Below, in pieces: positions 2,753-18,341 of a DNA stretch of 64,000 nucleotides. A model generated the notes under the pieces. That model worked only from the letters and a program-made list of their open reading frames with translations, did not search any database and was not told the DNA's origin. This stretch comes from Eubacteriales bacterium (GTDB lineage Bacteria > Bacillota > Clostridia > Oscillospirales > CAG-272): positions 890-64,889 of the forward strand of contig JAZSMJ010000066.1 of NCBI GenBank assembly GCA_045535815.1. Reading direction: 5' to 3'. Each line of letters opens with the position of its first letter. The stretch's first letter is position 1. Made by a program: the position numbers and the translations under genes.

Positions 2753-3340
2753 TTATTCAAGCACAGTGATGTGAATGATAGCTCCGGCACAACCAAGATG
2801 TGCGCCGGAATTGGGATCTACATTGTAGAACATGGCGGTACATTCATACACACCCTTATCAAGATCGACGTTCAGCTTGGCACTTTCGATTTTACTGCCA
2901 ACGGGAATTGCACCGGATCTATATATTATCTCACCCGTATCATTTCGGGTGATTTCCACAACTTGCGGATAACGGTTGATGTTCTCGTTGACGATCATGA
3001 GATTTCCGGCAGATGTACCGTTAGCGAAGTTGGGAGCGGTGTTGCAAGAAATATTCATCATTCCTTCCTCAACCTTTTCATTCAGATTTGCAATGATTCT
3101 GTCTGCATCTGTTTTGTCCCAGCCGCCCTGTACAGCATCGTTATCATATACAATGCCGGACTTGATTGTGTCGTCTGTCGTTTCAATCGGCTTGTCGCTT
3201 TCACAACCACGGAGCAGACTAATGATAATGGCAATCGCAATAAGGATACCGATTGTGATACCTGTAATTTTTAAGAACATGCCGTTATCTTTTTTTTGAT
3301 AACGTGATTTGTTGTTTACGGAATGTTTGGAATCTTTCAT
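2753..3340 (-). CDS. Membrane-anchored extracytoplasmic protein, unknown function
   Basis: Preferred start ATG 3340 with AGGAG upstream; basic N-terminus, one TM (ITGITIGILIAIAIIISLL), then a ~140-aa soluble domain. Confidence 0.55.
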   Translation of the reverse strand: MKDSKHSVNNKSRYQKKDNGMFLKITGITIGILIAIAIIISLLRGCESDKPIETTDDTIKSGIVYDNDAVQGGWDKTDADRIIANLNEKVEEGMMNISCNTAPNFANGTSAGNLMIVNENINRYPQVVEITRNDTGEIIYRSGAIPVGSKIESAKLNVDLDKGVYECTAMFYNVDPNSGAHLGCAGAIIHITVLE

Positions 3341-3487
3341 TCTGGTCTCCTGTCTGCCGTCTTTGCGGCGTATAGATTTGTCTTTGCGCATTTGTCTTGG
3401 TGGTTCGGTTAAGGCGGAATCACCAAGCGGTGCAGATAATACAGCATGGAATCACTCCTTTCGAGGGCATAAAAATAACTCCCACTT

Positions 3488-4393
3488 TTATTTGTTGTGA
3501 GAGCTGTTACCATACAAATCATGCTGAACTAACGCTGAGTAATAGTTGCCGATGGTAATCGAGGCATTGTACAGCGTTGTCAGTAGATATTGCTTGATGT
3601 TTCGAATTTTCGTTGTGTTTTCTTTCAGGCAGTTAAATACGAATTTGATATGCTCTATGTCCAGCTTTAGTAGCCGTGAGCGAACTATCTCGGAAGGGTG
3701 GTCTGTTCCTGCCACGCGTATATACCTTTTCGTGGAACATACCGTTTCCACTAGAAGTTCTAGTATTTCCTTCAGCCTGTCACGGTCAAGGGGGAGTTCA
3801 TCGTACAGAATGTCATACGAGATATTTTCCTTTATGATTTCTCTGTATATCTCTATATCACGCATATTCGCTTCGTTTCGTTTCGATTCAAGGTCGGTAA
3901 GCACGGAAAGATGTTTACCATCGGAATAGAATGAATCGATGTTTTGTGAGTTAGTAATTGATTTGTGAGTATTTGTTATATCTATATTTAATTGTGTGGG
4001 ATTTTCCTGTTCAGGCTTTGCCAAGATAGGTTTATCCAAGCTTGGATTTTCCAAAACTGGATTTTCCCGTTCAGGTTTTTCCGGTTTAGGTGAAGGCTGT
4101 TTCGGCTGTTCTAGTATAGTGTATTCGATAGAACCGAGCTGACCGTTGGTGCTCCGAACACGCTCACGAATCACATATCCGTGTTCTTCCAGTTCTCTCA
4201 CTCCGGCACAAATGCTGTCTACACCGTCCTTACAGATATGGGCAAGACCTTTAGTGGTGTAGTCCCAATCTTCGGGAAGGGAGAGCATAAGTGAGAGCAA
4301 ACCTTTTGCTTTCAGTGATAAATCCTTATTCCGCAGATGATAATTAGCCATCACGGTATAATCCTTTGTCTTTTCAATTCGGAATACTGCCAT
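3488..4393 (-). CDS. Replication-initiator-type winged-HTH protein typical of Firmicutes ICEs/plasmids
   Basis: Start MAVFRIEKTKDYTVMANYHLRNKDLSLKAKGLLSLMLSLPEDWDYT... is the conserved N-terminal module of this family as I recall it; P/E-rich linker; RBS GAGGGA. Confidence 0.6.
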   Translation of the reverse strand: MAVFRIEKTKDYTVMANYHLRNKDLSLKAKGLLSLMLSLPEDWDYTTKGLAHICKDGVDSICAGVRELEEHGYVIRERVRSTNGQLGSIEYTILEQPKQPSPKPEKPERENPVLENPSLDKPILAKPEQENPTQLNIDITNTHKSITNSQNIDSFYSDGKHLSVLTDLESKRNEANMRDIEIYREIIKENISYDILYDELPLDRDRLKEILELLVETVCSTKRYIRVAGTDHPSEIVRSRLLKLDIEHIKFVFNCLKENTTKIRNIKQYLLTTLYNASITIGNYYSALVQHDLYGNSSHNK

Positions 4394-5009
4394 GCGTGTC
4401 TCCCTCGTTGTCCAGCGACAGAATTGCTGGTCCGTATCTGCTGATAAGAATTGCATTGATAACAAGCCGAAATGCTTCTTCATCGTATATCTCGGGGTCG
4501 GCAAGTTCATCCGCTTTCATGTCGTTTGATTGTGTGTACAGGCTTTTCGCCGCTTTATACAGTGCATATTGTTTGATATTCATGCCGAGAAGCTGTGTGA
4601 AACGAAAATCTATTCTCAGATTTGTGAAGCACTTTGACATACGGCTGAACAAGTCGGCATCTGCGGTCAGTAGATAGAGAGCCGCATAATATACGTTGGT
4701 GCCCTGTTCTTCAAAATGATCGTATTCAAAATGATCGTATATGATTTGTGTATGAGTGAATCTGTGCTTGTGATTTTTGTCTTTCCATAAAGGTTGATCG
4801 GCATATCTCAATAAGTGTTTCAATCGATTTTGTAGGTGCATATGCTCCAAGAAAAAAGAACGAAACAGCAGCTTATATTCTACAACACCCGTTTCGATTC
4901 TCTCGCTCATCCAAGGGCATATGATCTCTCTGCATCGTCCGCGAATGAATCGCAGGCAATATTTACAGTTCATATCCTGACGTTTGTATTTATATTCTTG
5001 ACGTTTCAT
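4374..5009 (-). CDS. ICE-associated protein of unknown function (DUF6075-like by recollection)
   Basis: Preferred start ATG 5009 with GGAGG upstream; sits between the ParB-like and Rep-like genes, as is usual in such elements. Confidence 0.45.
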   Translation of the reverse strand: MKRQEYKYKRQDMNCKYCLRFIRGRCREIICPWMSERIETGVVEYKLLFRSFFLEHMHLQNRLKHLLRYADQPLWKDKNHKHRFTHTQIIYDHFEYDHFEEQGTNVYYAALYLLTADADLFSRMSKCFTNLRIDFRFTQLLGMNIKQYALYKAAKSLYTQSNDMKADELADPEIYDEEAFRLVINAILISRYGPAILSLDNEGDTHGSIPN

Positions 5010-5087
5010 GATTTCCTCCGATAGATTTTGAAATGACAAACGTCCGATGAGATGAATCACTCAACATCGGACGTTCAAATAAGATAT

Positions 5088-5963
5088 TCAGTTATTGCTT
5101 GTTTTCTGATTTATATTTTCTATTCGCCGTTTATACCACATATCCAGCAGGCGGTAGATTGTTTTTTCGATTTGCTTTGAAGTATAGCTTTTTGGGAAGT
5201 ATTTGCGGAGTTTTTCCAATGTGAGTGTCAGATTCCCACTCTCGGGTTTCTTTTGCTCGGTCATAATCCCCAGCATGGAGTCATCGTCCAATTTGCCTTC
5301 TTGGGACAGTTTCTTCATGCGCTGAGCCTGTGAGAGCGATGGCGTAGCCTGTTCGCTGTCGATAGTGTCAATCAGTAGCAATTGTTCATCAGGTTTCAGA
5401 TAAGAGAGTTCAACAGCAGGCGTCATGCCTATTTTTCCATTATCAACCATTTGTTGAAGTTCAGGCTTCAGTTCGGTCAGTCGTATGTATCTCTGTATTT
5501 GTGCGCGGCTTTCACCTGATTCCTTCGCTATTATTTCATCTGAACGCAACTTCGTCTCAACTTGAGACGAAGTTAAATCACGCCGTGCTCCTTGCCGTTT
5601 TATTGCATCGATTTTCATCTTGTATGCTTTTGCACGTTCGCTGGGGAGAATAAACTCTCTCTGCAAATTGCTGTCTACCATGATGATTGTAGCGACATCT
5701 CTGTCCACATCTCGGACAATTACGGGCATTGTATTAAATCCGGCTTGTTCACAGGCATATTTGCGTCTGTGTCCTGAAATCAGTTCGTATAATCCATTTT
5801 CAATCGGTCTGACAATTGCCGGAACTATAATGCCATATTCTTTGACGCTCTCTATTGTCTGCTTCATGGAGTCATCATCTCTGATGCTGAATGGGTGATT
5901 GGGAAATGAAACAATTTTGCTGATTGGTAAATTCATTATTTGTTCCGTAGAGCCCTTTAACAT
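5088..5963 (-). CDS. ParB/Spo0J-like nuclease-domain partition protein (mobile-element type)
   Basis: ParB-N motifs ...IVPAIVRP...YELISGHRRKYACEQAG...; HTH region SGESRAQIQRYIRL; RBS AGGAGG. Confidence 0.8.
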   Translation of the reverse strand: MLKGSTEQIMNLPISKIVSFPNHPFSIRDDDSMKQTIESVKEYGIIVPAIVRPIENGLYELISGHRRKYACEQAGFNTMPVIVRDVDRDVATIIMVDSNLQREFILPSERAKAYKMKIDAIKRQGARRDLTSSQVETKLRSDEIIAKESGESRAQIQRYIRLTELKPELQQMVDNGKIGMTPAVELSYLKPDEQLLLIDTIDSEQATPSLSQAQRMKKLSQEGKLDDDSMLGIMTEQKKPESGNLTLTLEKLRKYFPKSYTSKQIEKTIYRLLDMWYKRRIENINQKTSNN

Positions 5964-9115: not shown

Positions 9116-9156
9116 CATAGAATTATATAGACAAGTATGATTTTTTATGGTATAAT
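9116..9156 (+). promoter_or_regulatory. Promoter of the PqqD-rSAM operon with an abutting operator-like motif
   Basis: CATAGAATTATA (9116-9127), then TAGACA (9128-9133), 17-nt spacer, TGgTATAAT (9148-9156). Confidence 0.5.
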
Positions 9157-9182: not shown

Positions 9183-9461
9183 ATGAAAAAGTACATAAAA
9201 AATAAAACCATGGAATATATCGAACTTGATGAATCGGAAACAGTGATTAATGACATTGAAAGCGGAGATATACATTATATTGATGAAGTATCAACGATTA
9301 TTTTAAAGCAACTTGAAAAAGCATTATCGTTTGAAGAACTGATTGTAGCATTGCTTGAGCTGTTTGAAGGGAATGAACATGAGATCAGACAGGATACCGC
9401 CGAGTTCTTGAATGAGCTTGTACAGAAAAATATCATCCTTGAGGTAGAAGATGAAGATTGA
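9183..9461 (+). CDS. PqqD-family protein (stand-alone RiPP recognition element)
   Basis: 92 aa. The pattern ...GDIHYIDEVSTIILKQLEKALSFEELIVALLELFEGNEHEIRQDTAEFLNELVQKNII fits the PqqD fold signature. Its stop overlaps the rSAM start by 11 nt. Confidence 0.8.
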   Translation: MKKYIKNKTMEYIELDESETVINDIESGDIHYIDEVSTIILKQLEKALSFEELIVALLELFEGNEHEIRQDTAEFLNELVQKNIILEVEDED

Positions 9462-10467
9462 ATCTGTCTATTTTGAACTGACGAATATCTGTAATCTGAA
9501 CTGCAAAACCTGCTATAACCGCTCCGGATTGAATAATGAACGCCGGGAGATACCTATAGACGTATTATTTGAGTCAATCGAGAGATTTAATCGGTACGGA
9601 CTGAAATCAGTTCAATTAAGCGGTGGAGAAACAATGCTTTATACAGACATTGTGCCGCTTTTTGAGAAGATTCACAAAGTGCCTGACCTGCCGTTTTCAA
9701 TTTCTACGAACGGTACTGTGCACGGAGATTTATTGCTTGATTATTACAGAAGAGTTCCAAATCTGTATGTTCAGCTTAGTCTGGACGGAGCAAATGAGAA
9801 AGTTAATGCACGGACTCGCGGCAAAGGAAATTTTGAAAGATCTTTGCAGTTTCTCAAAGGATTGCATGACAGCGAGCGTCCTGTAGGCTATCGTATAAAA
9901 ATGGTATTGTCAAAGTATAACGTGGATAATATTCCCGATTATTTCCGTCTTGCCTCAGAGTATGACTGTGAGCCGCGTTTTTCATTTATGAATTCTGTTG
10001 GCAACGGAGAAAAAAACTGGTCTGATATGGCGCTGTCCGATGCAGAGAAAATGAAAGCATTGCGGTATATTGATCAAGCGAACAAAGCTTATAATATGGA
10101 AGTAACGCTTCCGTTCTGTGCGTTCAGCTGCCCGTTTGCAAGTGATGATCCGTATAATGTCAAGCTGAGCTGCATGGTGAAGCCGAACGGAGATATTATG
10201 CCTTGCCAGGGATTATACGATCCGGTATTCACGCTTAGTAATATAAATAAATTTGATGAGAACGAGCTTCAGCAAAACATGGAAAAGCTCTGCAATATTG
10301 CGTGTAAACGGCTGGATATGGACTATGGGTGCAAAAAATGCTTGATTGAACCGCTGTGCAAGAGAGGTTGCCCTGCTATGGCGGTGCTGAATAGCGGTGA
10401 TATTCTCGGAACTGATAAAGAGTGTTCATTCCGCCTCAAGCATTATTTGAAATATCAGCTTAGATAA
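9451..10467 (+). CDS. Radical SAM enzyme with C-terminal SPASM domain (peptide-maturase type)
   Basis: CNLNCKTC (CxxxCxxC) at residues 14-21; SGGE motif; C-terminal Cys cluster ...CMVKPNGDIMPCQG...CKKCLIEPLCKRGCP... Confidence 0.9.
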   Translation: MKIESVYFELTNICNLNCKTCYNRSGLNNERREIPIDVLFESIERFNRYGLKSVQLSGGETMLYTDIVPLFEKIHKVPDLPFSISTNGTVHGDLLLDYYRRVPNLYVQLSLDGANEKVNARTRGKGNFERSLQFLKGLHDSERPVGYRIKMVLSKYNVDNIPDYFRLASEYDCEPRFSFMNSVGNGEKNWSDMALSDAEKMKALRYIDQANKAYNMEVTLPFCAFSCPFASDDPYNVKLSCMVKPNGDIMPCQGLYDPVFTLSNINKFDENELQQNMEKLCNIACKRLDMDYGCKKCLIEPLCKRGCPAMAVLNSGDILGTDKECSFRLKHYLKYQLR

Positions 10468-10505
10468 GAGTATTATTGGAGTTTTCGTACATAAAAAGGA
10501 TCAAA

Positions 10506-11981
10506 ATGAATAATACGAAAATATTAAAAGCAGTTCTTGCCGTTAAAGGAGAATATACCATTACTGTTTTGGGCGTAAGTATGATGCCCGTGTTGAAACA
10601 CGGGCAGACTGTGAAAGTTGTTAAACAGAATAGCTATGTTGTCGGAGATATTCTTGTGTATGAATATAAGAATGAAGGTTTGCTTGCGCACAGAGCGCTG
10701 AAAATTGAAAACGGACGCTATTTCTGCAAGGGTGACAATTCTTTCAGATTGGAAGATATTACTGCGGAACAAGTTATTGGAAAAATTGAACTTGATGAAG
10801 ATGAAAACCGTACCGCAGAGTTTATTGAAGCGTCATATGCTATAAACAGACTGTTCCGAAAGAACGGATATGACATAGAGAAAACAAGATCACATCCGCA
10901 ATATGAAGTATATAAGCATACATATATTGATCGAATACAAAAAAATGAGCTTGTGGTAAATATTCGCAAGCTGGCGAATGGAGTTTCGGTCGAAGATGCG
11001 GAAACAATACGTGCGTTAGAAAAACATAAATGCTTTTATTTGCTGTCTCAGATTCCATCATATAGATCCAAACAGATAATGCAGCTTGCGGTAAGTCAAG
11101 CTGCGACGAAAATTCGATATAATACTTGCGCAGAAGTCTTCGCGGATCTAAAAAATATTCCGTATGCCGTTATCAAAGGCGCAGTATTATCTGATCAGAT
11201 CTACGGTAATTCTGCATATAGAACGTCGGGTGATATTGATCTGTTGATTGCTCCTGATAACGTTCAGGAAGTAAAATCTATTTTAAAAAAACACGGATTT
11301 ATACAAGGATATGTAAACGGCAATGATATCGTTCCGTACAGCAGGCAGGAGCTGATATATCAAAAAGCTTTTACGCATCAGATGGCAGCATTTGTGAAGC
11401 CAACCGGAGTTATGCTGTTTCCGTTTGTTAATATTGATGTTAATCTGGATATATTCTGGGGTGAAAGCGAACGAAAAGCGGATATGCAATCGTTTTTGCA
11501 AAACAGGGAAGATTACAATGTGCTTGGCGTAGAGGTGCAAAAGCTAAAACCGATATACGAATTTATTTCACTTTGCATGCATCACTACAAAGATTGTAAT
11601 TCATTGTATCTGCTCTCGGAGCGAGGCGTCAACCTTTCGTTGTTCTGCGATATTTATTACTATATAACGAAAGTGGCCCCGGATCCTTTTCAACTGAAAA
11701 ACGCGTGCGATTCCTATGGCGTGACGGATTATGTGGCGTATTGCGTATTCCATACTTATAGATTGTTTGAAGATGCTGAGCTTTTGAAATATCATCAAAT
11801 TTTGGCGCCGGGCGGAATCGGTAATCACTACTTTCGATTTGGTTTAACGGAGGATGAATATAAATATCCGGGGTTCGGTATTTCTGAATACGTTTTGAAT
11901 GATTCGTTTCGAGAACGTTTTCTTTCATGCCTTAATGAAAAGGATATTGAAAAAATAGAGATAAACAAAAAGTTTATGTAA
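10506..11981 (+). CDS. Fusion: N-terminal SipW/ER-type (S26B/S24-like) serine peptidase domain without a TM, plus C-terminal NTP_transf_5-type nucleotidyltransferase
   Basis: VSMMP ... GDILVY ... AHRAL ... CKGDNS parallels the B. subtilis SipW motifs GSMEP/GDVITF/THRIV/KGDNN. No hydrophobic N-terminal segment. The C-terminal part has SGDIDLLIAP. Confidence 0.7.
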   Translation: MNNTKILKAVLAVKGEYTITVLGVSMMPVLKHGQTVKVVKQNSYVVGDILVYEYKNEGLLAHRALKIENGRYFCKGDNSFRLEDITAEQVIGKIELDEDENRTAEFIEASYAINRLFRKNGYDIEKTRSHPQYEVYKHTYIDRIQKNELVVNIRKLANGVSVEDAETIRALEKHKCFYLLSQIPSYRSKQIMQLAVSQAATKIRYNTCAEVFADLKNIPYAVIKGAVLSDQIYGNSAYRTSGDIDLLIAPDNVQEVKSILKKHGFIQGYVNGNDIVPYSRQELIYQKAFTHQMAAFVKPTGVMLFPFVNIDVNLDIFWGESERKADMQSFLQNREDYNVLGVEVQKLKPIYEFISLCMHHYKDCNSLYLLSERGVNLSLFCDIYYYITKVAPDPFQLKNACDSYGVTDYVAYCVFHTYRLFEDAELLKYHQILAPGGIGNHYFRFGLTEDEYKYPGFGISEYVLNDSFRERFLSCLNEKDIEKIEINKKFM

Positions 11982-11996
11982 ATACGGGGATTTTAA

Positions 11997-12776
11997 ATGA
12001 GATTACATATTCAACTTCCATATCACGAAGATAGCTACACGGTCGATACCGAGTGTGAAGAAATAATCAGCGCACTGCGAATTACATACGGCAAATTTTG
12101 TAATACACTCGAGTGTGAAGATATGTATGTTTATAGGATAATCCGAGATGGGGAATCATATAAATTAACGTATAACGGACACAAGAGAAATACGGATACA
12201 CCTCTTCAAATTCTGCACAATGCGATGTTTACACATAAAAAGATATCCCCGGGTATTTTTGCACTTCATGCAGGCGGTGTTGAGTGGGGCGGTAAAGCAT
12301 ATATTTTCTGTGCTGCCACGTCTACGGGAAAAACTACTTTGACTGCATATCTGACACAAAAGGGACTGAACTATATTGCAGATGATTGTGTTTTTGTAAA
12401 TATGAATGATCTGATGGTCTATCCATGCCATACACCTATTCATCTGAGAGACGGCGGATATAAAGTTCTGCGCGATTTGGGAGTGTTGGAAGATCCCGCT
12501 TTCTGTGTGGATGACAGATATGTTTATATGCCCAATAACCTCTCTTCGATGCAGATGGAGCTTGGTGGTATATTTTTTATAAATCGCACTGAGAATGAGA
12601 ACGTTATAGAGATACCCGATAAGGCAACTACCCTGCGGAATCTGATGCTGTCCCCAATTACAAGCTATCCGATGAAGAAAGAGTACATTGCGTTTTTGAA
12701 CAGATTAACACCATATTGCCGTAGCATAAAGTATAGTGATATGGACTACGTGTTAAATAAAATTCTGACAATATAA
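11997..12776 (+). CDS. HPr-kinase-related P-loop protein (RiPP-associated Ser/Thr kinase type)
   Basis: ...FALHAGGVEWGGKAYIFCAATSTGKTTLTAYLTQKGLNYIADDCVF... matches the HprK C-terminal-domain-like core (HA..V, GKT/S, DD). Confidence 0.7.
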   Translation: MRLHIQLPYHEDSYTVDTECEEIISALRITYGKFCNTLECEDMYVYRIIRDGESYKLTYNGHKRNTDTPLQILHNAMFTHKKISPGIFALHAGGVEWGGKAYIFCAATSTGKTTLTAYLTQKGLNYIADDCVFVNMNDLMVYPCHTPIHLRDGGYKVLRDLGVLEDPAFCVDDRYVYMPNNLSSMQMELGGIFFINRTENENVIEIPDKATTLRNLMLSPITSYPMKKEYIAFLNRLTPYCRSIKYSDMDYVLNKILTI

Positions 12777-12778
12777 CA

Positions 12779-12815
12779 AAAGACCCACAGCTTATAAAAC
12801 AGCGGGTCTTTTATT
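12779..12815 (+). terminator. Imperfect hairpin terminator after the kinase-like gene
   Basis: AAAGACCC ... GGGTCTTT followed by TATT. The 5' arm ACCCACAGC is shared with the terminator at 14286. Confidence 0.5.
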
Positions 12816-12899: not shown

Positions 12900-12977
12900 T
12901 TTGTTTTCCAAAAGTTCATTGTTTTTTTGTAATTGTGTGCTATACTATACTTGTATTATAATGACGGAGGTGCGTGT

Positions 12978-14276
12978 ATGTACCGAATTGCTATTGAAAA
13001 GCTGTTGAAATGGAAACAAAGCGAACGCCGTAAGCCTTTAATTATCGAAGGTGCACGTCAGGTCGGCAAGACTTGGCTGATGAAAGAATTCGGCAGGCAG
13101 GCGTATGCGGATACCGTATATATTAATTTCGACTCCAATTCCAGAATGGCAGAGCTGTTTGCTTCGGATCTGGACACCGAGCGCTTGATCATGGGCTTGG
13201 AGGTGTATGTGGGGCGCAAAATAGATCCCGACAACTCTTTGCTTATTTTCGATGAAGTACAGGAAGTTCCGAGAGCACTCACGTCTCTTAAATATTTTTA
13301 CGAAAATGCGCCGCAGTATCACATTGTATGTGCCGGTTCGCTACTCGGCATTGCGTTGCATCAAGGTACGTCTTTCCCCGTGGGCAAGGTGGATTTCTTA
13401 AAACTGTATCCCCTTTCCTTCAAGGAATTTTTGATGGCAACCGATAAGGAACGATTTGCCGAGCTGCTTGATAAGCGAGACTTCGATATGATCACGAGCT
13501 TTAAGCAAACGTATATTGATGCTTTGAAGCATTATTACTTTGTTGGCGGTATGCCTGAAGCTGTGCAAAGCTTCGCAGAGAATAGAGATTTTAATGAGGT
13601 TCGTGAAATTCAAAAGAGGATCCTTGCAGCCTATGAACAAGATTTCTCCAAACATGCTCCCAACGAAATCGTTCCGAGATTGCGTATGCTGTGGAACAGC
13701 ATACCCTCTCAGTTGGCAAAAGAAAATAAGAAGTTTATCTACGGGCTTGTTCGTGAGGGCGCTCGTGCAAAAGACTATGAAACTGCAATTATGTGGCTCA
13801 GCGATTGCGGTCTTGTTCATAAGGTCAGCCGTATCAATGCCCCGGGTATCCCCTTGCGTGCTTATGAGGACTTGAAAGCGTGTAAGCTATTTGTGGTAGA
13901 CGTTGGTCTCCTCGGCTGTATGGCCGGACTTCGTCAACGAACCTTGCTTGACGGAAGCGACCTTTTTGTTGAGTTCAAGGGTGCACTTACAGAACAGTAC
14001 GTTTGTCAGCAGTTAAAAACTGTAGATGACCTGGATGTATATTACTATACAAACGACAGAGGCACTTGCGAGGTTGACTTTGTCGTTGATACGGGCGAGT
14101 TGATCGTACCCGTTGAAGTAAAGGCAGAGGTAAACCTTAGAGCAAAGAGCCTAAAAAACTATCATGAAAAATTCTCTCCCGAAGTTTCTGTCCGTACATC
14201 TATGGCGGACTATAAAAAAGAAGAATGGCTTGTTAATCTTCCGCTGTATGCGATAGATCGGATAACTCAAATATAA
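12978..14276 (+). CDS. AAA-type ATPase with DUF4143-like C-terminal domain
   Basis: Start MYRIA with GGAGG upstream; Walker A GARQVGKT; Walker B LLIFDEVQ; visibly higher GC than the flanking genes. Confidence 0.8.
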   Translation: MYRIAIEKLLKWKQSERRKPLIIEGARQVGKTWLMKEFGRQAYADTVYINFDSNSRMAELFASDLDTERLIMGLEVYVGRKIDPDNSLLIFDEVQEVPRALTSLKYFYENAPQYHIVCAGSLLGIALHQGTSFPVGKVDFLKLYPLSFKEFLMATDKERFAELLDKRDFDMITSFKQTYIDALKHYYFVGGMPEAVQSFAENRDFNEVREIQKRILAAYEQDFSKHAPNEIVPRLRMLWNSIPSQLAKENKKFIYGLVREGARAKDYETAIMWLSDCGLVHKVSRINAPGIPLRAYEDLKACKLFVVDVGLLGCMAGLRQRTLLDGSDLFVEFKGALTEQYVCQQLKTVDDLDVYYYTNDRGTCEVDFVVDTGELIVPVEVKAEVNLRAKSLKNYHEKFSPEVSVRTSMADYKKEEWLVNLPLYAIDRITQI

Positions 14277-14285
14277 GCGGACACA

Positions 14286-14321
14286 AAAATACCCACAGCG
14301 TTTATAAGCTGTGGGTATTTT
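14286..14321. terminator. Perfect 14-bp bidirectional terminator
   Basis: AAAATACCCACAGC (14286-14299) / GCTGTGGGTATTTT (14308-14321), with A/T runs on both sides. Confidence 0.75.
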
Positions 14322-14332
14322 AATGTTTTTAC

Positions 14333-14509
14333 TTACATTTTTATCGGCGGATTGCCCGGAATAGAGTCGAGATGATATCCCGCCGGGAAGCAATCAGAAC
14401 CATCATCATAATTTGAACAAGCAGAAACAGCAATTCTTTCTTTTATGCTTTTGTCATTTACTGTGAGCATTGACGGTTTTTTCCAAGTTGTTTTCATATT
14501 ATTTTCCAT
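14333..14509 (-). CDS. 58-aa peptide, candidate RiPP precursor (below the 60-aa cut-off of the ORF track)
   Basis: MENNMKTTWKKPSMLTVNDKSIKERIAVSACSNYDDGSDCFPAGYHLDSIPGNPPIKM. AGAGG lies 5 nt upstream of ATG 14509. It starts 11 nt after the stop of the upstream gene and ends at the 14286-14321 terminator. Confidence 0.5.
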   Translation of the reverse strand: MENNMKTTWKKPSMLTVNDKSIKERIAVSACSNYDDGSDCFPAGYHLDSIPGNPPIKM

Positions 14510-14520
14510 TTTTACCTCTG

Positions 14521-15558
14521 TTAAAAGAATTTTTCTATATGTTTTTTTAATGTATTGAAATAGGTTGAATTTATACTGTAATAAACAAATTTTCCTTGTT
14601 TGGTGTGTATAGTCAATCCGGATTTTTCAAGCATATTTAAATGATAAAGCGTGCTGTTGTTTTTTAAGCCCAATTCTTTGGCTATCTGTGCACAAAACAT
14701 ATCTTCTTTGGCTAACATATTCAATATTTTAATGCGCTGCTCGTCATAAAGAACACGGCCTAATTCATATAAATTAATTTTTTCCACATTTGAATCAATG
14801 TCATATAACGATAAATACGGTTCACTGTTGATTCCCAATAATGATACCCAGGTATCAGGCGTGCTTTCGTATGAGTTTGCAACAACAAGCACTGAGCAAC
14901 AAGAGACGTATATATTTTCAAATTGAGTAATATCCTTGCAGAATATAGAGCTTAAGAGATTAATATATTTTGATTCAAAATCTTTAACTAACTGCTTGAT
15001 TTCATTCTGATGTATTTGGTTGAATTCTCTGCAAAGCGCTTCTACTTTTCTAAGTTCGGAAATGATCTCTTCAATTTCTCTATCTCCGTACATGAGAAAA
15101 TAGAATATGTACATCTTAACGTCACTTGGCAGGTCAGCATTGAAAAGTTCATCTTTTATTGAGCAAATAGTTTCAACGTCAAAAATATCGGGACTATTCT
15201 CTGAAACATAGTTTTTGTAAATCGTTTGTTTCAATCTGTTTATATCGCGAAGCGAATCATAGAAACGCTCAATCAAACCGTCTTGAGGATTTGAAGCGAT
15301 TTTAACGTATTTGCGAATATGAGAAACAAGCGCTGTTTTTATGTTTTTTTCTTTGTTACAATAAAATAAACATAATAATTTGTCCGGGATGTTTGATAAT
15401 CTTTCGATGATCAATTTGTAGAAGTTTTCATTCTGCTCATAGGGAACATTATCTGTTCGCAATTGAATATACGCACGCTCGCCGTTAAAACGAAGCTTCA
15501 GAGCGAATAACATGTCATAAAGTATACCGGGCTCTTTTAAATATACGATATTGTTCAA
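14521..15558 (-). CDS. ArsR-family winged-HTH regulator with a long N-terminal domain of unknown function
   Basis: C-terminal ...DEQRIKILNMLAKEDMFCAQIAKELGLKNNSTLYHLNMLEKSGLTIHTKQGKFVYYSI is a classic ArsR/HTH_20 pattern. Confidence 0.7.
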   Translation of the reverse strand: MNNIVYLKEPGILYDMLFALKLRFNGERAYIQLRTDNVPYEQNENFYKLIIERLSNIPDKLLCLFYCNKEKNIKTALVSHIRKYVKIASNPQDGLIERFYDSLRDINRLKQTIYKNYVSENSPDIFDVETICSIKDELFNADLPSDVKMYIFYFLMYGDREIEEIISELRKVEALCREFNQIHQNEIKQLVKDFESKYINLLSSIFCKDITQFENIYVSCCSVLVVANSYESTPDTWVSLLGINSEPYLSLYDIDSNVEKINLYELGRVLYDEQRIKILNMLAKEDMFCAQIAKELGLKNNSTLYHLNMLEKSGLTIHTKQGKFVYYSINSTYFNTLKKHIEKFF

Positions 15559-15745
15559 TAATTCATCTCCTTTTTATTAACGTTCGCACAATAATTCTAT
15601 CACAAAACGAATCAAATGTCAATGATTTTTGGAAATATCAGTTAAAAAATTTGAATTATTCTGTCGAAATACAGTTACGGATTGTGGATTTTTGTTCGAT
15701 GTATGATAAAATATTATTCGATTGTGTTTGGATATATTGGTGATA

Positions 15746-16015
15746 ATGAGACACATTATGGAAGAAACATTGAAAGAAGAACTGCGTTTTCTTGCTTTGA
15801 ACACAAGAGATCAACTTGATCTTACCCAAAGCAAGATGGCTGAAAAGCTTGTTATGAGTGTAAACTCATACTCCGATATTGAGACCGGAGCGCATATGTG
15901 CGGAGCATTAACAACGGTCTTACTGTTGGCGGAACAGGAAGATCCTAAATCTATTTTGCAGGAATTTAAAGAGAAGCTTGATAAATTTCGCAAAAAAGAT
16001 ACTAAAGAGACATGA
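15746..16015 (+). CDS. XRE-family HTH protein
   Basis: ...LRFLALNTRDQLDLTQSKMAEKLVMSVNSYSDIETG...; start uncertain (15722/15746/15758); ATGA overlap with the next ORF. Confidence 0.6.
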   Translation: MRHIMEETLKEELRFLALNTRDQLDLTQSKMAEKLVMSVNSYSDIETGAHMCGALTTVLLLAEQEDPKSILQEFKEKLDKFRKKDTKET

Positions 16016-16254
16016 CCGCCGTTACATACGGGATAGTTGAAGAGCGGTATATACTCGGAAATTGTAGTCGTACCTCTTATGGAATTGCAGCCTATGCAAA
16101 TTCGGAAGTTGACGGATCGGCAATTATAGTTGCTTCGGTAAGCGACGTATCCGATAAAAAGCATGAGATGGAAGAACTTGTCCGTCTGTGCAACAGTATG
16201 GACCTTTCTCCAATTCACCTGTATGATGTAGTCGAAGATTTTCTGTCTATGTAA
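16012..16254 (+). CDS. Small conserved protein (DUF6514-like by recollection), translationally coupled to the XRE gene
   Basis: 80 aa, ...RTSYGIAAY...LSPIHLYDVVEDFL. Confidence 0.45.
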   Translation: MTAVTYGIVEERYILGNCSRTSYGIAAYANSEVDGSAIIVASVSDVSDKKHEMEELVRLCNSMDLSPIHLYDVVEDFLSM

Positions 16255-16315
16255 GATAGAATAAAAAGCACTAAAAATACAATGAAAGGAAAATCCAAAC
16301 ACAATCACACGTTTT

Positions 16316-16345
16316 CCTCCGAGCGTAATCGCTCGGAGGTTTTTC
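16316..16345 (+). terminator. Rho-independent terminator
   Basis: CCTCCGAGCG-TAAT-CGCTCGGAGG followed by TTTTT. Confidence 0.7.
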
Positions 16346-16396
16346 GTTCGTTGCTTTTTAGTTTGAGCTTTTTCGACAAACAATTACTTCCTTATA

Positions 16397-16426: not shown

Positions 16427-16530
16427 TAATTGTAGAAACATCGCAAATTTATAGTTAATAAGTCTATAATACATAGAATTATACTTTTGGAAATATCGAA
16501 TTATGAGAATGAACAAGCGAGGAATGTGCA

Positions 16531-16788
16531 ATGAAAAAAATAACAAAAGAGAACGTATTGTGTGTGCTTAACGAAACAATTGAAGAAATAAAAATAACCG
16601 AAGAATGCATGGATGTTGATTTAACTCAACTTGGGCTTGACTCTATTCTTTTTATAAAGACTATCGTAGCTCTTGAAGAAGAATTTGAAGTTGAGGTGCC
16701 CGACTCAAAATTGCTGATTGCTGAAATGAATACAGCACAAAAAATATGGGATGTACTGAAAGAGCTTACATCAGAAGGAGATCAATAA
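16531..16788 (+). CDS. Acyl carrier protein
   Basis: 85 aa with phosphopantetheine-attachment motif LGLDSILFIK. Confidence 0.8.
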   Translation: MKKITKENVLCVLNETIEEIKITEECMDVDLTQLGLDSILFIKTIVALEEEFEVEVPDSKLLIAEMNTAQKIWDVLKELTSEGDQ

Positions 16789-18341
16789 TGAATCGTTTTG
16801 TTATTACATCCAATATATGCTTTGAGCCGTATCTGCGACGTTCGCTTGAAGAAAGATATGGCAGCAATATAAAGCTTTCGTCGGTACCGTTGGCAGAGCT
16901 GCAAGATAATACTCATTATGAAACACTCTGCAGTGCAGATTACATAATTGTTATAATAAACCTCGAAGAACGGTTTCCGAATTTGACAGATGGCTTAAGA
17001 TGCGGCATTTTTTCTGCGGATGAAATCGTCGGTATAATGGAGGCTGAATGCAAAACTACCATTGCTTATCTTACAAAAACAACATCAGCACCGATTTTTT
17101 TGTTTTCTTTTGAGGATTACGGAATCAGAGAGAGACCTCTGTTTGGCTCGGTCTTATATCTTGACGGTCTTGTCGGAAGATTGAATGAAATGCTGTTTGC
17201 TTTGAAAACAGATAACATTACTTTCTTTGATATGCAATACATTATTGCACGTGTCGGAATGGCAAACTCATATGATATACGCGGAAAATATCGTTGGAAT
17301 GCTCCGTATTCGAAAGAAATGATATCGGATATGGTAGCCGAAATTGATCGCCATATCAGAACTTTAAACAGTGAGACAAAAAAATGCATTGTAGTCGATT
17401 GCGATAATGTGCTTTGGGGCGGTATTATCTCGGAAGATGGCATAGAAAGAATCAAGCTTGACAGCAGTGGTCTTGGCAGAGAATATCAGGATTTTCAGCG
17501 TTATCTTAAGCTCATGTATGACTATGGAATCATAATTGCTGTTTGCAGTAAGAATGATCAGGTTGACGTTATGCGGATGTTTCGTGAGCACAATGCGATG
17601 ATTTTGCGCGAGGAACACATTTCAAGCTTCCGTGTGAATTGGCAAAGCAAAGCTGAGAATATAAAGGAAATAGCGGCCGAGTTGAATATCGGGCTGGAGA
17701 GCATGGTGTTTGTTGATGATTCGGAATTTGAAGTGAATTCGGTTCGTGCGTTGCTGCCGGAGGTTACTTCTATATTATATAATAGGAAGACGATAATGTC
17801 TGACATGGCAGAATGTATAGGGCTGAGCGATAGAGTGCCAAATCAAAATGCTTTGGAACGTCAGAATACATATTTAACAAATAGAAAACGGGAGCAGTTG
17901 CGTGCAGAATGCTCGTCGTTTGATGAATATCTGAATTCTCTTGAGATGAAAATCGATATCCATATTGCCGATAACTCGGAGCTTAACCGTATCTCCGAGC
18001 TCACGCAGAGAGCAAATCAATGCACAAACGGTGTGCGTTGCTCAGTGAATGATTTGAAAGCTTATATTGCAAACGGCGGAAGTTTGTATGCCGTATATGT
18101 AACTGATAAATATTCCGATTTAGGCTTGGTTGGCGCTATCGGAATGAAGGGAGAGCGCCTTTGTTTGTTTGTTCTTTCCTGCCGTGCGCTAGGCAGAAAA
18201 ATCGAAGATGCTATGCTTGATTTTACAAACAAGTGTTGTGTACGTGAGGTCGTTTTTTCCGATACCGATAAAAACAAAGAGCTTTCGGATATGTTATCGA
18301 GAAACAGTCTGAGAATATTGTTGAATAGCTCGCCTTTTTAA
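16788..18341 (+). CDS. FkbH-like HAD-IIIC phosphatase/acyl-loading enzyme with GNAT-like C-terminus
   Basis: Start overlaps the ACP stop (TAATG). HAD motif VVDCDNVLWGG; ...AVCSKND...; ...VFVDDS... Confidence 0.75.
   Translation: MNRFVITSNICFEPYLRRSLEERYGSNIKLSSVPLAELQDNTHYETLCSADYIIVIINLEERFPNLTDGLRCGIFSADEIVGIMEAECKTTIAYLTKTTSAPIFLFSFEDYGIRERPLFGSVLYLDGLVGRLNEMLFALKTDNITFFDMQYIIARVGMANSYDIRGKYRWNAPYSKEMISDMVAEIDRHIRTLNSETKKCIVVDCDNVLWGGIISEDGIERIKLDSSGLGREYQDFQRYLKLMYDYGIIIAVCSKNDQVDVMRMFREHNAMILREEHISSFRVNWQSKAENIKEIAAELNIGLESMVFVDDSEFEVNSVRALLPEVTSILYNRKTIMSDMAECIGLSDRVPNQNALERQNTYLTNRKREQLRAECSSFDEYLNSLEMKIDIHIADNSELNRISELTQRANQCTNGVRCSVNDLKAYIANGGSLYAVYVTDKYSDLGLVGAIGMKGERLCLFVLSCRALGRKIEDAMLDFTNKCCVREVVFSDTDKNKELSDMLSRNSLRILLNSSPF

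Follow-up and report, generated by a model that had tools for sequence, protein, structure and literature searches.

A short conserved gene as the probable precursor of an undescribed radical-SAM RiPP pathway in ruminant-gut Clostridia

Several described systems come close to the locus we have studied. In lasso peptide biosynthesis, HprK-like kinases phosphorylate a Ser of the precursor and NTP_transf-type proteins add hexose to that phosphate; the latter are sometimes fused to the leader peptidase (PMC8498205). Lasso leaders have a YxxPxL motif, which is read by PqqD-type RiPP recognition elements (RREs), and a single RRE can serve the kinase and the peptidase alike (PMC10368454). The radical SAM (rSAM) enzymes SkfB, PqqE and CteB are found in other systems; all three are peptide cross-linkers. 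FkbH domains load glyceryl units onto an acyl carrier protein (ACP). We will compare these systems with a cassette found in a stretch of 64,000 nt, which we call the window. We found no database name, curated family, solved structure or paper which describes this cassette or the peptide family associated with it.

Our main conclusion is that a minus-strand ORF of 58 codons is quite probably the precursor peptide of an undescribed radical-SAM RiPP pathway in ruminant-gut Clostridia. The assignment is derived from sequence comparison; there is no chemical or binding evidence for it. The ORF and its surroundings have the following features.

14333-14509, minus strand: proposed precursor peptide gene, 58 aa plus stop (ORF and translation, homologues, synteny, strain variants)
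14509-14420, minus strand: proposed leader, residues 1-30
14419-14336, minus strand: proposed core, residues 31-58
14515-14519, minus strand: Shine-Dalgarno-like AGAGG, 5 nt ahead of the peptide ATG (direct sequence reading)
14286-14321: perfect hairpin of 14 pairs, loop of 8, T-runs on both sides, 11 nt past the peptide stop
14521-15558, minus strand: regulator of 345 aa, with an N-terminal helical domain of about 250 aa and a C-terminal ArsR/SmtB winged helix
15594-15622, minus strand: promoter-like TTGACA-17-TAGAAT with TG (11/12), upstream of the 345-aa gene (consensus match only)

The ORF, read from 14509 to 14333, is translated as MENNMKTTWKKPSMLTVNDKSIKERIAVSACSNYDDGSDCFPAGYHLDSIPGNPPIKM. 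From the TAA of the 345-aa gene to the peptide ATG there are 11 nt, CAGAGGTAAAA. A previous sequence-only reading of this DNA had described the AGAGG at 5 nt, the 11-nt gap and the 14-bp hairpin, and all of them hold on the sequence. We interpret the hairpin as the predicted terminator of the regulator-precursor operon, which faces a convergent ATPase gene. With a promoter-like site before them and the hairpin after, the regulator and peptide genes would thus form one promoter-to-terminator unit. Metatranscriptome contigs, which come from two runs only, cover parts of the regulator gene and no part of the peptide gene, so that they are uninformative for the peptide.

A 10-mer, ATAGAATTAT, is present three times in the 64 kb, while 0.35 copies are expected; it was a post hoc find. 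Its copies are:

9117-9126, plus strand: first copy of the 10-mer
15591-15600, minus strand: second copy
16473-16482, plus strand: third copy

Each copy is found 33-57 nt upstream of one of the three operons of the cluster, in the same orientation as the operon. In one related locus (L002) it is placed 41 nt before the regulator gene; elsewhere its conservation is partial. It could be an operator or a -10 region common to the three operons.

A word-indexed protein search with the single peptide gave nothing but the peptide itself. By an exhaustive HMMER search of 1.84 billion representatives we detected 13 small homologues of 50-59 aa, with E values from 1.7e-11 to 3.1e-4. This search also gave long repeat proteins (P0040, P0042, P0054 and others), which on inspection were driven by composition and repeats and were discarded. 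Further members were obtained by a profile search, up to a total of 23 distinct sequences. The resulting family of about 23 distinct homologues has lengths of 50-59 aa; all of them are unnamed or unannotated, and all come from gut or ruminant Clostridia. Scanned against Pfam and NCBIfam, the members gave no family, and 17 of them have no NCBIfam match even at E<=10. With the family profile an ORF is found at the same syntenic position in every related locus which bears the cassette (E 1e-18 to 1e-26), while the window contains one member only.

A short frame without any curated family match could be due to chance in an AT-rich intergenic region, but the comparative data already refute it. The sequence-only reading would have failed if the ORF had not been conserved in related islands; instead, in about 10 independent loci there are peptide homologues with 30-55% identity in which reading frame, invariant residues and gene position are all preserved. 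In two strain variants, found in metagenome contigs, the frame is likewise maintained and most changes are synonymous or conservative; one of them has 4 synonymous and 3 conservative changes with respect to the window in the shared segment. The conservation of the family, together with the strain variants, indicates purifying selection on a protein-coding gene. We give practically no credit to a chance ORF, and on this comparative evidence we conclude that the 58-codon frame is a real, conserved gene.

The conservation of the 23 peptides is very uneven. Trp9, Pro12 and the pair Cys31-Ser32 are invariant; Lys6, Ile26, the second Cys, Ser49, Pro51 and Gly52 are nearly so. In all of them the first Cys comes exactly 22 residues after Trp, with no indels in the leader. 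The residue at position i+5 from Trp is hydrophobic in the 23 members, and Trp and Pro (i, i+3) never change. The segment WKKPSML had been proposed as a leader motif; the family sustains this proposal, since W-x-x-P is invariant and followed by a hydrophobic residue at +5, in the same pattern as YxxPxL of lasso leaders. The segment past Cys31 varies both in length and in sequence. The core starts with Cys-Ser, usually has an aromatic residue at +4, and continues with a hypervariable stretch bounded by the second Cys. The latter is present in 23/23 peptides, at a distance of 6-9 residues from the first one; the two Cys which had been singled out in the window, C31 and C40, are therefore both conserved. 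Towards the end of the core we find [H/Y/F]-hydrophobic-[D/E]-Ser-[I/F]-Pro-Gly, followed by a short tail. The last residue is Met in 17 of the 23 peptides and never Ser, so that the absence of a C-terminal Ser, noted before for the window, is general. A leader/core architecture is deduced from the invariant Trp, Pro and Cys-Ser, the fixed spacing of 22 residues and the variable segment which follows Cys31.

The residue which precedes Cys31 is Ala in 22 peptides (Ala30 in the window) and Ser in the other one (P0066). Two positions further upstream we find Val in 13 cases, Ala in 6, Ile in 3 and Ser in 1. A sequence [VAIS]-x-A before the proposed cut site fits the -3/-1 rule of type I signal peptidases. 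On the other hand [VIA]-[SG]-A-C agrees with the lipobox consensus, and V-S-A-C could be taken as the mark of a secreted lipoprotein or of a small protein with a signal peptide. However the leaders have no hydrophobic h-region: in the five members for which it was computed there are 6-10 charged residues, and the most hydrophobic stretch of 9 leader residues has a mean Kyte-Doolittle value of only 0.5-1.5. A leader which is charged and not hydrophobic excludes a lipoprotein, to which we assign next to no probability.

The related loci were obtained from orthologues of the 345-aa protein, with 33-59% identity, which we placed on their contigs. Their hosts are MAGs of uncultured Clostridia, Eubacteriales and Ruminococcus, from ruminant and other guts. 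The peptide homologues include the following.

L001, 7915-8088: peptide homologue
L002, 9041-9208: peptide homologue
L003, 9044-9214: peptide homologue; GTG start, overlooked by gene callers
L004, 9038-9211: peptide homologue
L006, 8872-9027: peptide homologue

In every locus which has a homologue, the peptide gene either overlaps the regulator stop codon or begins at most 11 nt from it; in L012 and L013 the overlap is 4 nt (ATGA). The coupling to the ArsR-type gene, noticed at first in the window, is a constant feature of all of them. A homologous rSAM/SPASM gene is present in nine of ten non-redundant loci, and in eight of these it is accompanied by PqqD. In L002, L003, L006, L011-L014, L016 and L017 the rSAM gene is convergent with the peptide gene and is found 40-430 nt past its stop; its product is 50-62% identical to that of the window (9451-10467). 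The PqqD gene comes after the convergent rSAM gene in all these loci but L016, where the contig ends inside the rSAM gene. The same loci also encode an S24-like peptidase, an ACP-FkbH fusion, an NTP_transf_5 protein, a ScmC/HprK-like protein, Xre regulators and a DUF6514 protein. The sequence-only reading considered the peptide as the best precursor candidate for the rSAM and PqqD genes; its position directly convergent with them in nine loci strengthens this candidacy.

The true substrate of the rSAM enzyme might nevertheless be another peptide, and the 58-aa protein would then be unrelated to it. An ORF of 66 aa (MK..GLIITDYPDKR.IYSEWTKH...) is found just upstream of the regulator gene in L002 (7721-7921), L004, L012, L013, L016 and L018, so that it is conserved in one subclade; it has no family match. 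But this ORF has no counterpart in the window, and it is also absent from L001/L007, L003 and L006. An ORF upstream of PqqD is the other option, as the DNA of this region is conserved among L002, L011 and L012. In this case the similarity extends over several frames and both strands, which is a DNA-level and not a coding similarity, and it is absent in the window and in L006; upstream of PqqD, the window and its relatives share no other conserved small ORF. Among small ORFs, the 58-aa family alone is common to all loci which bear the cassette. We find it very unlikely that a different peptide is the substrate, and we retain the 58-aa protein as the precursor.

Some of the related loci have additional genes. 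A second, different radical-SAM gene with its own ORFs of 45-61 aa is found in L003 (10938-15306), L013 (10549-12502) and L014 (3476-4992); in these relatives it may correspond to another RiPP cluster beside the one studied here. In L004 (9363-10825) there are Thoeris-like genes (ThsB TIR, ThsA Macro) between the precursor gene and an rSAM remnant at the end of the contig.

The closest relative of the window, L007, is peculiar. It has a RelB antitoxin gene in the usual slot of PqqD, and in its rSAM protein Gly replaces the first SPASM Cys. Without an adjacent PqqD and with this Cys lost, either the dependence on PqqD is not universal or the L007 cluster is decaying. In this locus the pair of regulator and peptide genes is duplicated as a unit (2939-4133 and 10001-11222; the same is found in L001). 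The extra regulator is nearest to that of L006 (52%) and its peptide is among the nearest to the L006 peptide (50%).

The 345-aa regulator deserves a separate description. A genuine ArsR/SmtB winged helix makes up its C-terminal 90 residues: HTH_5 and HTH_20 are detected in 35/35 members of the regulator family, the PDB profile matches are SmtB, CadC and HlyU, and Foldseek gives a probability of 1.0 for the ArsR domain. Its score with the NCBIfam model HTH_metalloreg is 49.7, below the cutoff of 55. ArsR/SmtB metalloregulators are single-domain dimers of about 100-120 aa with metal-site residues, whereas the protein found here has 345 aa and an N-terminal domain of 250 aa. The AF2 model of the whole regulator has a pLDDT of 89, and a separate, high-confidence model of the N-domain has pLDDT 92 and pTM 0.90. 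No Pfam family and no PDB fold match were found for the N-domain (best Foldseek E 0.39, TM<0.2); with the whole model Foldseek matched the ArsR domain only.

These features allow a different view of the peptide: it could be mainly a regulatory partner of the ArsR-type protein (autoinducer precursor, anti-repressor or co-repressor), either not a substrate of the rSAM enzyme or only incidentally so, and the coupling of both genes would ensure a fixed ratio. In favour of this view, the peptide gene is in all cases attached to the regulator gene, by overlap or direct contact, and absent from the enzyme operon; the duplication in L007 includes both genes; and the large N-terminal part of the regulator, whose fold is unknown, resembles a ligand domain. 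However, regulator orthologues outside the cassette (L005/L009, L008) also have no peptide. The peptide thus tracks the enzymes and not the regulator alone. Furthermore the fixed spacer, the invariant Cys and the hypervariable core look like those of a precursor processed by enzymes. A mainly regulatory partner appears unlikely to us, and we continue with the peptide as an rSAM substrate, although the regulatory and substrate roles are not mutually exclusive.

The conserved cassette is complete in the window and extends to the left and to the right of the peptide gene. Its other genes, and the ATPase gene placed among them, are:

9183-9461, plus strand: PqqD-family RiPP recognition element, 92 aa (Pfam PF05402, E 4.9e-11)
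9451-10467, plus strand: putative radical SAM/SPASM peptide maturase, 338 aa (CX3CX2C and complete SPASM Cys set)
10476-11981, plus strand: fusion of an S24/S26 signal-peptidase-like domain (residues ~10-153) and NTP_transf_5 (154-501)
11997-12776, plus strand: HprK/ScmC-like P-loop kinase homologue, 259 aa (TIGR04352, E 3.4e-11, below cutoff; Walker A SxGKT)
12933-14276, plus strand: AAA_14/DUF4143 ATPase gene
15722-16015, plus strand: Xre-type HTH regulator, divergent from the regulator-precursor operon; orthologue in L001/L007
16012-16254, plus strand: DUF6514 protein, conserved cluster member
16531-16788, plus strand: acyl carrier protein (PP-binding)
16746-18341, plus strand: FkbH-domain (HAD-IIIC) protein (TIGR01686, 222 bits vs cutoff 146.65)

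An ORF of 190 aa (15811-16383, minus strand) is spurious, antisense to the Xre and DUF6514 genes. The organization of the window differs from that of its relatives. In the latter the order is S24, ACP-FkbH, NTP_transf_5, all of them separate genes, with FkbH fused to the ACP; in the window the S24 and NTP_transf_5 domains are fused, while the ACP and FkbH are separate genes and have moved to the opposite side of the cluster. PqqD orthologues are found next to the peptide gene in related loci. The rSAM cassette had been described as a separate unit about 4 kb away from the peptide gene, which is not correct: the peptide gene has a central place in the cluster, and what separates it from the rSAM cassette is the ATPase gene, which is absent from all related loci. 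This gene is bracketed by inverted 21-nt copies (95%) of an arm of the terminator hairpin, at 12778-12798 and 14301-14321, and its contig depth is 2-4 times above that of its neighbours in two metagenomes. To judge from these features, the ATPase gene has the appearance of an insert between the HprK-like and precursor genes. Upstream of the ATPase gene we have also detected two direct repeats of 21 nt (12849, 12882). Further to the left, in 3488-5963 of the minus strand, there are a ParB-like gene (5088-5963) and a DUF6017/HTH_36 gene (3488-4510), which suggests that this side of the window is part of a mobile element of plasmid or ICE type.

The rSAM protein of the window is 50-70% identical to its orthologues in the related loci, where the rSAM gene is in most cases the immediate neighbour of the peptide gene. 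Among proteins of solved structure, SkfB, PqqE and CteB are nearest to this enzyme. Every named NCBIfam model stays far below its cutoff (StsB 88/625, PapB 56/340, PqqE 66/381 and ScmE 98.4/400, the best one), and therefore the bond made by this enzyme cannot be deduced from homology. We consider it as a putative peptide-modifying enzyme of no named family, the chemistry of which is inferred and has not been shown. Low scores are also found for ScmC (17.3/125), HprK_rel_A (42.8/200) and PqqD_rel_X (19.1/35); the orthologues of the HprK/ScmC-like gene carry Pfam ScmC at a weak level. In the peptidase the motifs GxSMxP, HR and KGDN are invariant across eight loci. Its S24/S26-type domain is soluble and has as best family match the archaeal/ER-type signal peptidase I, with E 8.5e-10, below cutoff.

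With these elements a pathway can be proposed. The PqqD protein would hold the leader (residues 1-30) by its invariant W-x-x-P-x-hydrophobic motif, and the indel-free spacer of 22 residues would put Cys31 into the active sites of the partner enzymes. The rSAM/SPASM enzyme would then cross-link the hypervariable core, most likely by thioether-type bonds of the two conserved Cys, by the conserved aromatic residues, or by both. The S24/S26-like peptidase would cut the leader after [V/A/I/S]-x-A, between Ala30 and Cys31, which would expose Cys31 as the new N-terminus. Ser32 or Ser49 may receive a phosphate, with or without a further group, from the kinase homologue and the nucleotidyltransferase-like protein; these two residues are candidates by analogy with the homologues in paeninodin and pseudomycoidin. 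A glyceryl-type unit would be supplied by the ACP and FkbH proteins. Finally the novel N-terminal domain probably makes the regulator a sensor of the peptide or of its product, and the regulator would control the promoters of the cluster; this is again an inference. It speaks against this scheme that the precursor gene is transcribed with the regulator and not with the enzymes, an unusual arrangement which also fits a signalling role.

One may go further and suppose a new class of RiPPs. In this class a single PqqD would present a leader of fixed length in turn to an rSAM/SPASM cross-linker, to a protease of the signal-peptidase type which cuts between AXA and Cys, and to the kinase/nucleotidyltransferase pair. 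The FkbH/ACP glyceryl unit would cap the N-terminal Cys by a thioester-to-amide transfer, like native chemical ligation, and the product or the unprocessed precursor would be the ligand of a sensor domain not seen before, fused to an ArsR winged helix, so that the cluster would contain its own regulatory loop based on peptide sensing. The capping of the Cys is speculation, and the complete scheme is tentative, rather unlikely to be right in all its parts.

The family offers a concrete substrate candidate for an rSAM/SPASM enzyme whose own family has no named member. It is a small new precursor family (~23 sequences), which gene callers and family libraries have overlooked; further members can now be sought with the motif W-x2-P-x17-[VAI]-x-A-C-S. 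The combination of an rSAM enzyme with a signal-peptidase-like protease, a kinase/nucleotidyltransferase and FkbH/ACP was not found in the literature searched, so that the product could carry chemistry new to RiPPs (cross-linked, phosphorylated/glycosylated, acyl-capped). The invariant coupling of precursor and regulator, with a domain of novel fold, gives a handle on how such clusters sense their own product.

When we compare the cassette with known systems, the SynChlorMet (ScmC/ScmE) and HPr-rel-A (HprK_rel_A and PqqD_rel_X) cassettes, defined in silico by Haft, share with it an HprK-like P-loop protein, a PqqD-like protein and an rSAM/SPASM enzyme. ScmE and HprK_rel_A are the best NCBIfam matches, but all matches are far below the cutoffs, and those systems have no described peptide of the 58-aa family. 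The PQQ pathway (PqqA/PqqD/PqqE) has in common a separate PqqD chaperone and an rSAM/SPASM enzyme. PqqA also has a W-x-x-P segment near its N-terminus (MWKKPAF... in Klebsiella). However none of the 17 members scanned has a family match with PqqA, the pair Glu-x3-Tyr (E-x3-Y) is not conserved, PqqB, PqqC and PqqF are absent, and there are no PqqB/C homologues nearby.

Sactipeptides, ranthipeptides and other rSAM/SPASM RiPPs (SkfB, CteB/SCIFF, PapB, StsB) share an rSAM enzyme with a full SPASM domain, an RRE and a core which contains Cys. In the present family just two Cys are conserved and their spacing varies; the RRE is a protein of its own and the cluster has extra tailoring genes. As a member of the thioether family the rSAM enzyme gives a mixed result: it has a full SPASM and SkfB and CteB are the nearest solved proteins, while the StsB and PapB models are far below cutoff. 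The system does not qualify as one with precursors of SCIFF or mycofactocin type.

The lasso clusters of Firmicutes (paeninodin, pseudomycoidin; Bsf) have in common with the present one a discrete PqqD-type RRE and an HprK-like kinase (PMC8498205; PMC10368454), as well as an NTP_transf-type nucleotidyltransferase, sometimes fused to the leader peptidase as it is here (PMC8498205). Their leaders share the aromatic-x-x-P-x-hydrophobic motif (PMC10368454). No lasso cyclase (Asn-synthetase-like C) and no B2 transglutaminase-type peptidase were found in any cluster gene, neither in the window nor in the related loci; the rSAM/SPASM enzyme and the S24/S26-type peptidase take their places. The lasso marks of leader and core are also absent: position -2 is Ser, Phe, Gly, Leu or Gln instead of Thr/Ile, and there is no C-terminal Ser. 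Unlike the lasso clusters, the present one has ACP and FkbH genes. Two generic features of a precursor of the PqqD-RRE type are present, namely a leader with a conserved recognition motif before a variable core, and a small conserved ORF clustered with PqqD and a modifying enzyme: orthologous peptide, PqqD and rSAM genes are adjacent in L002, L003, L006, L011-L014 and L017. As far as gene content can tell, the system would work like an RRE-dependent rSAM RiPP pathway with kinase/nucleotidyltransferase tailoring in the style of lasso peptides.
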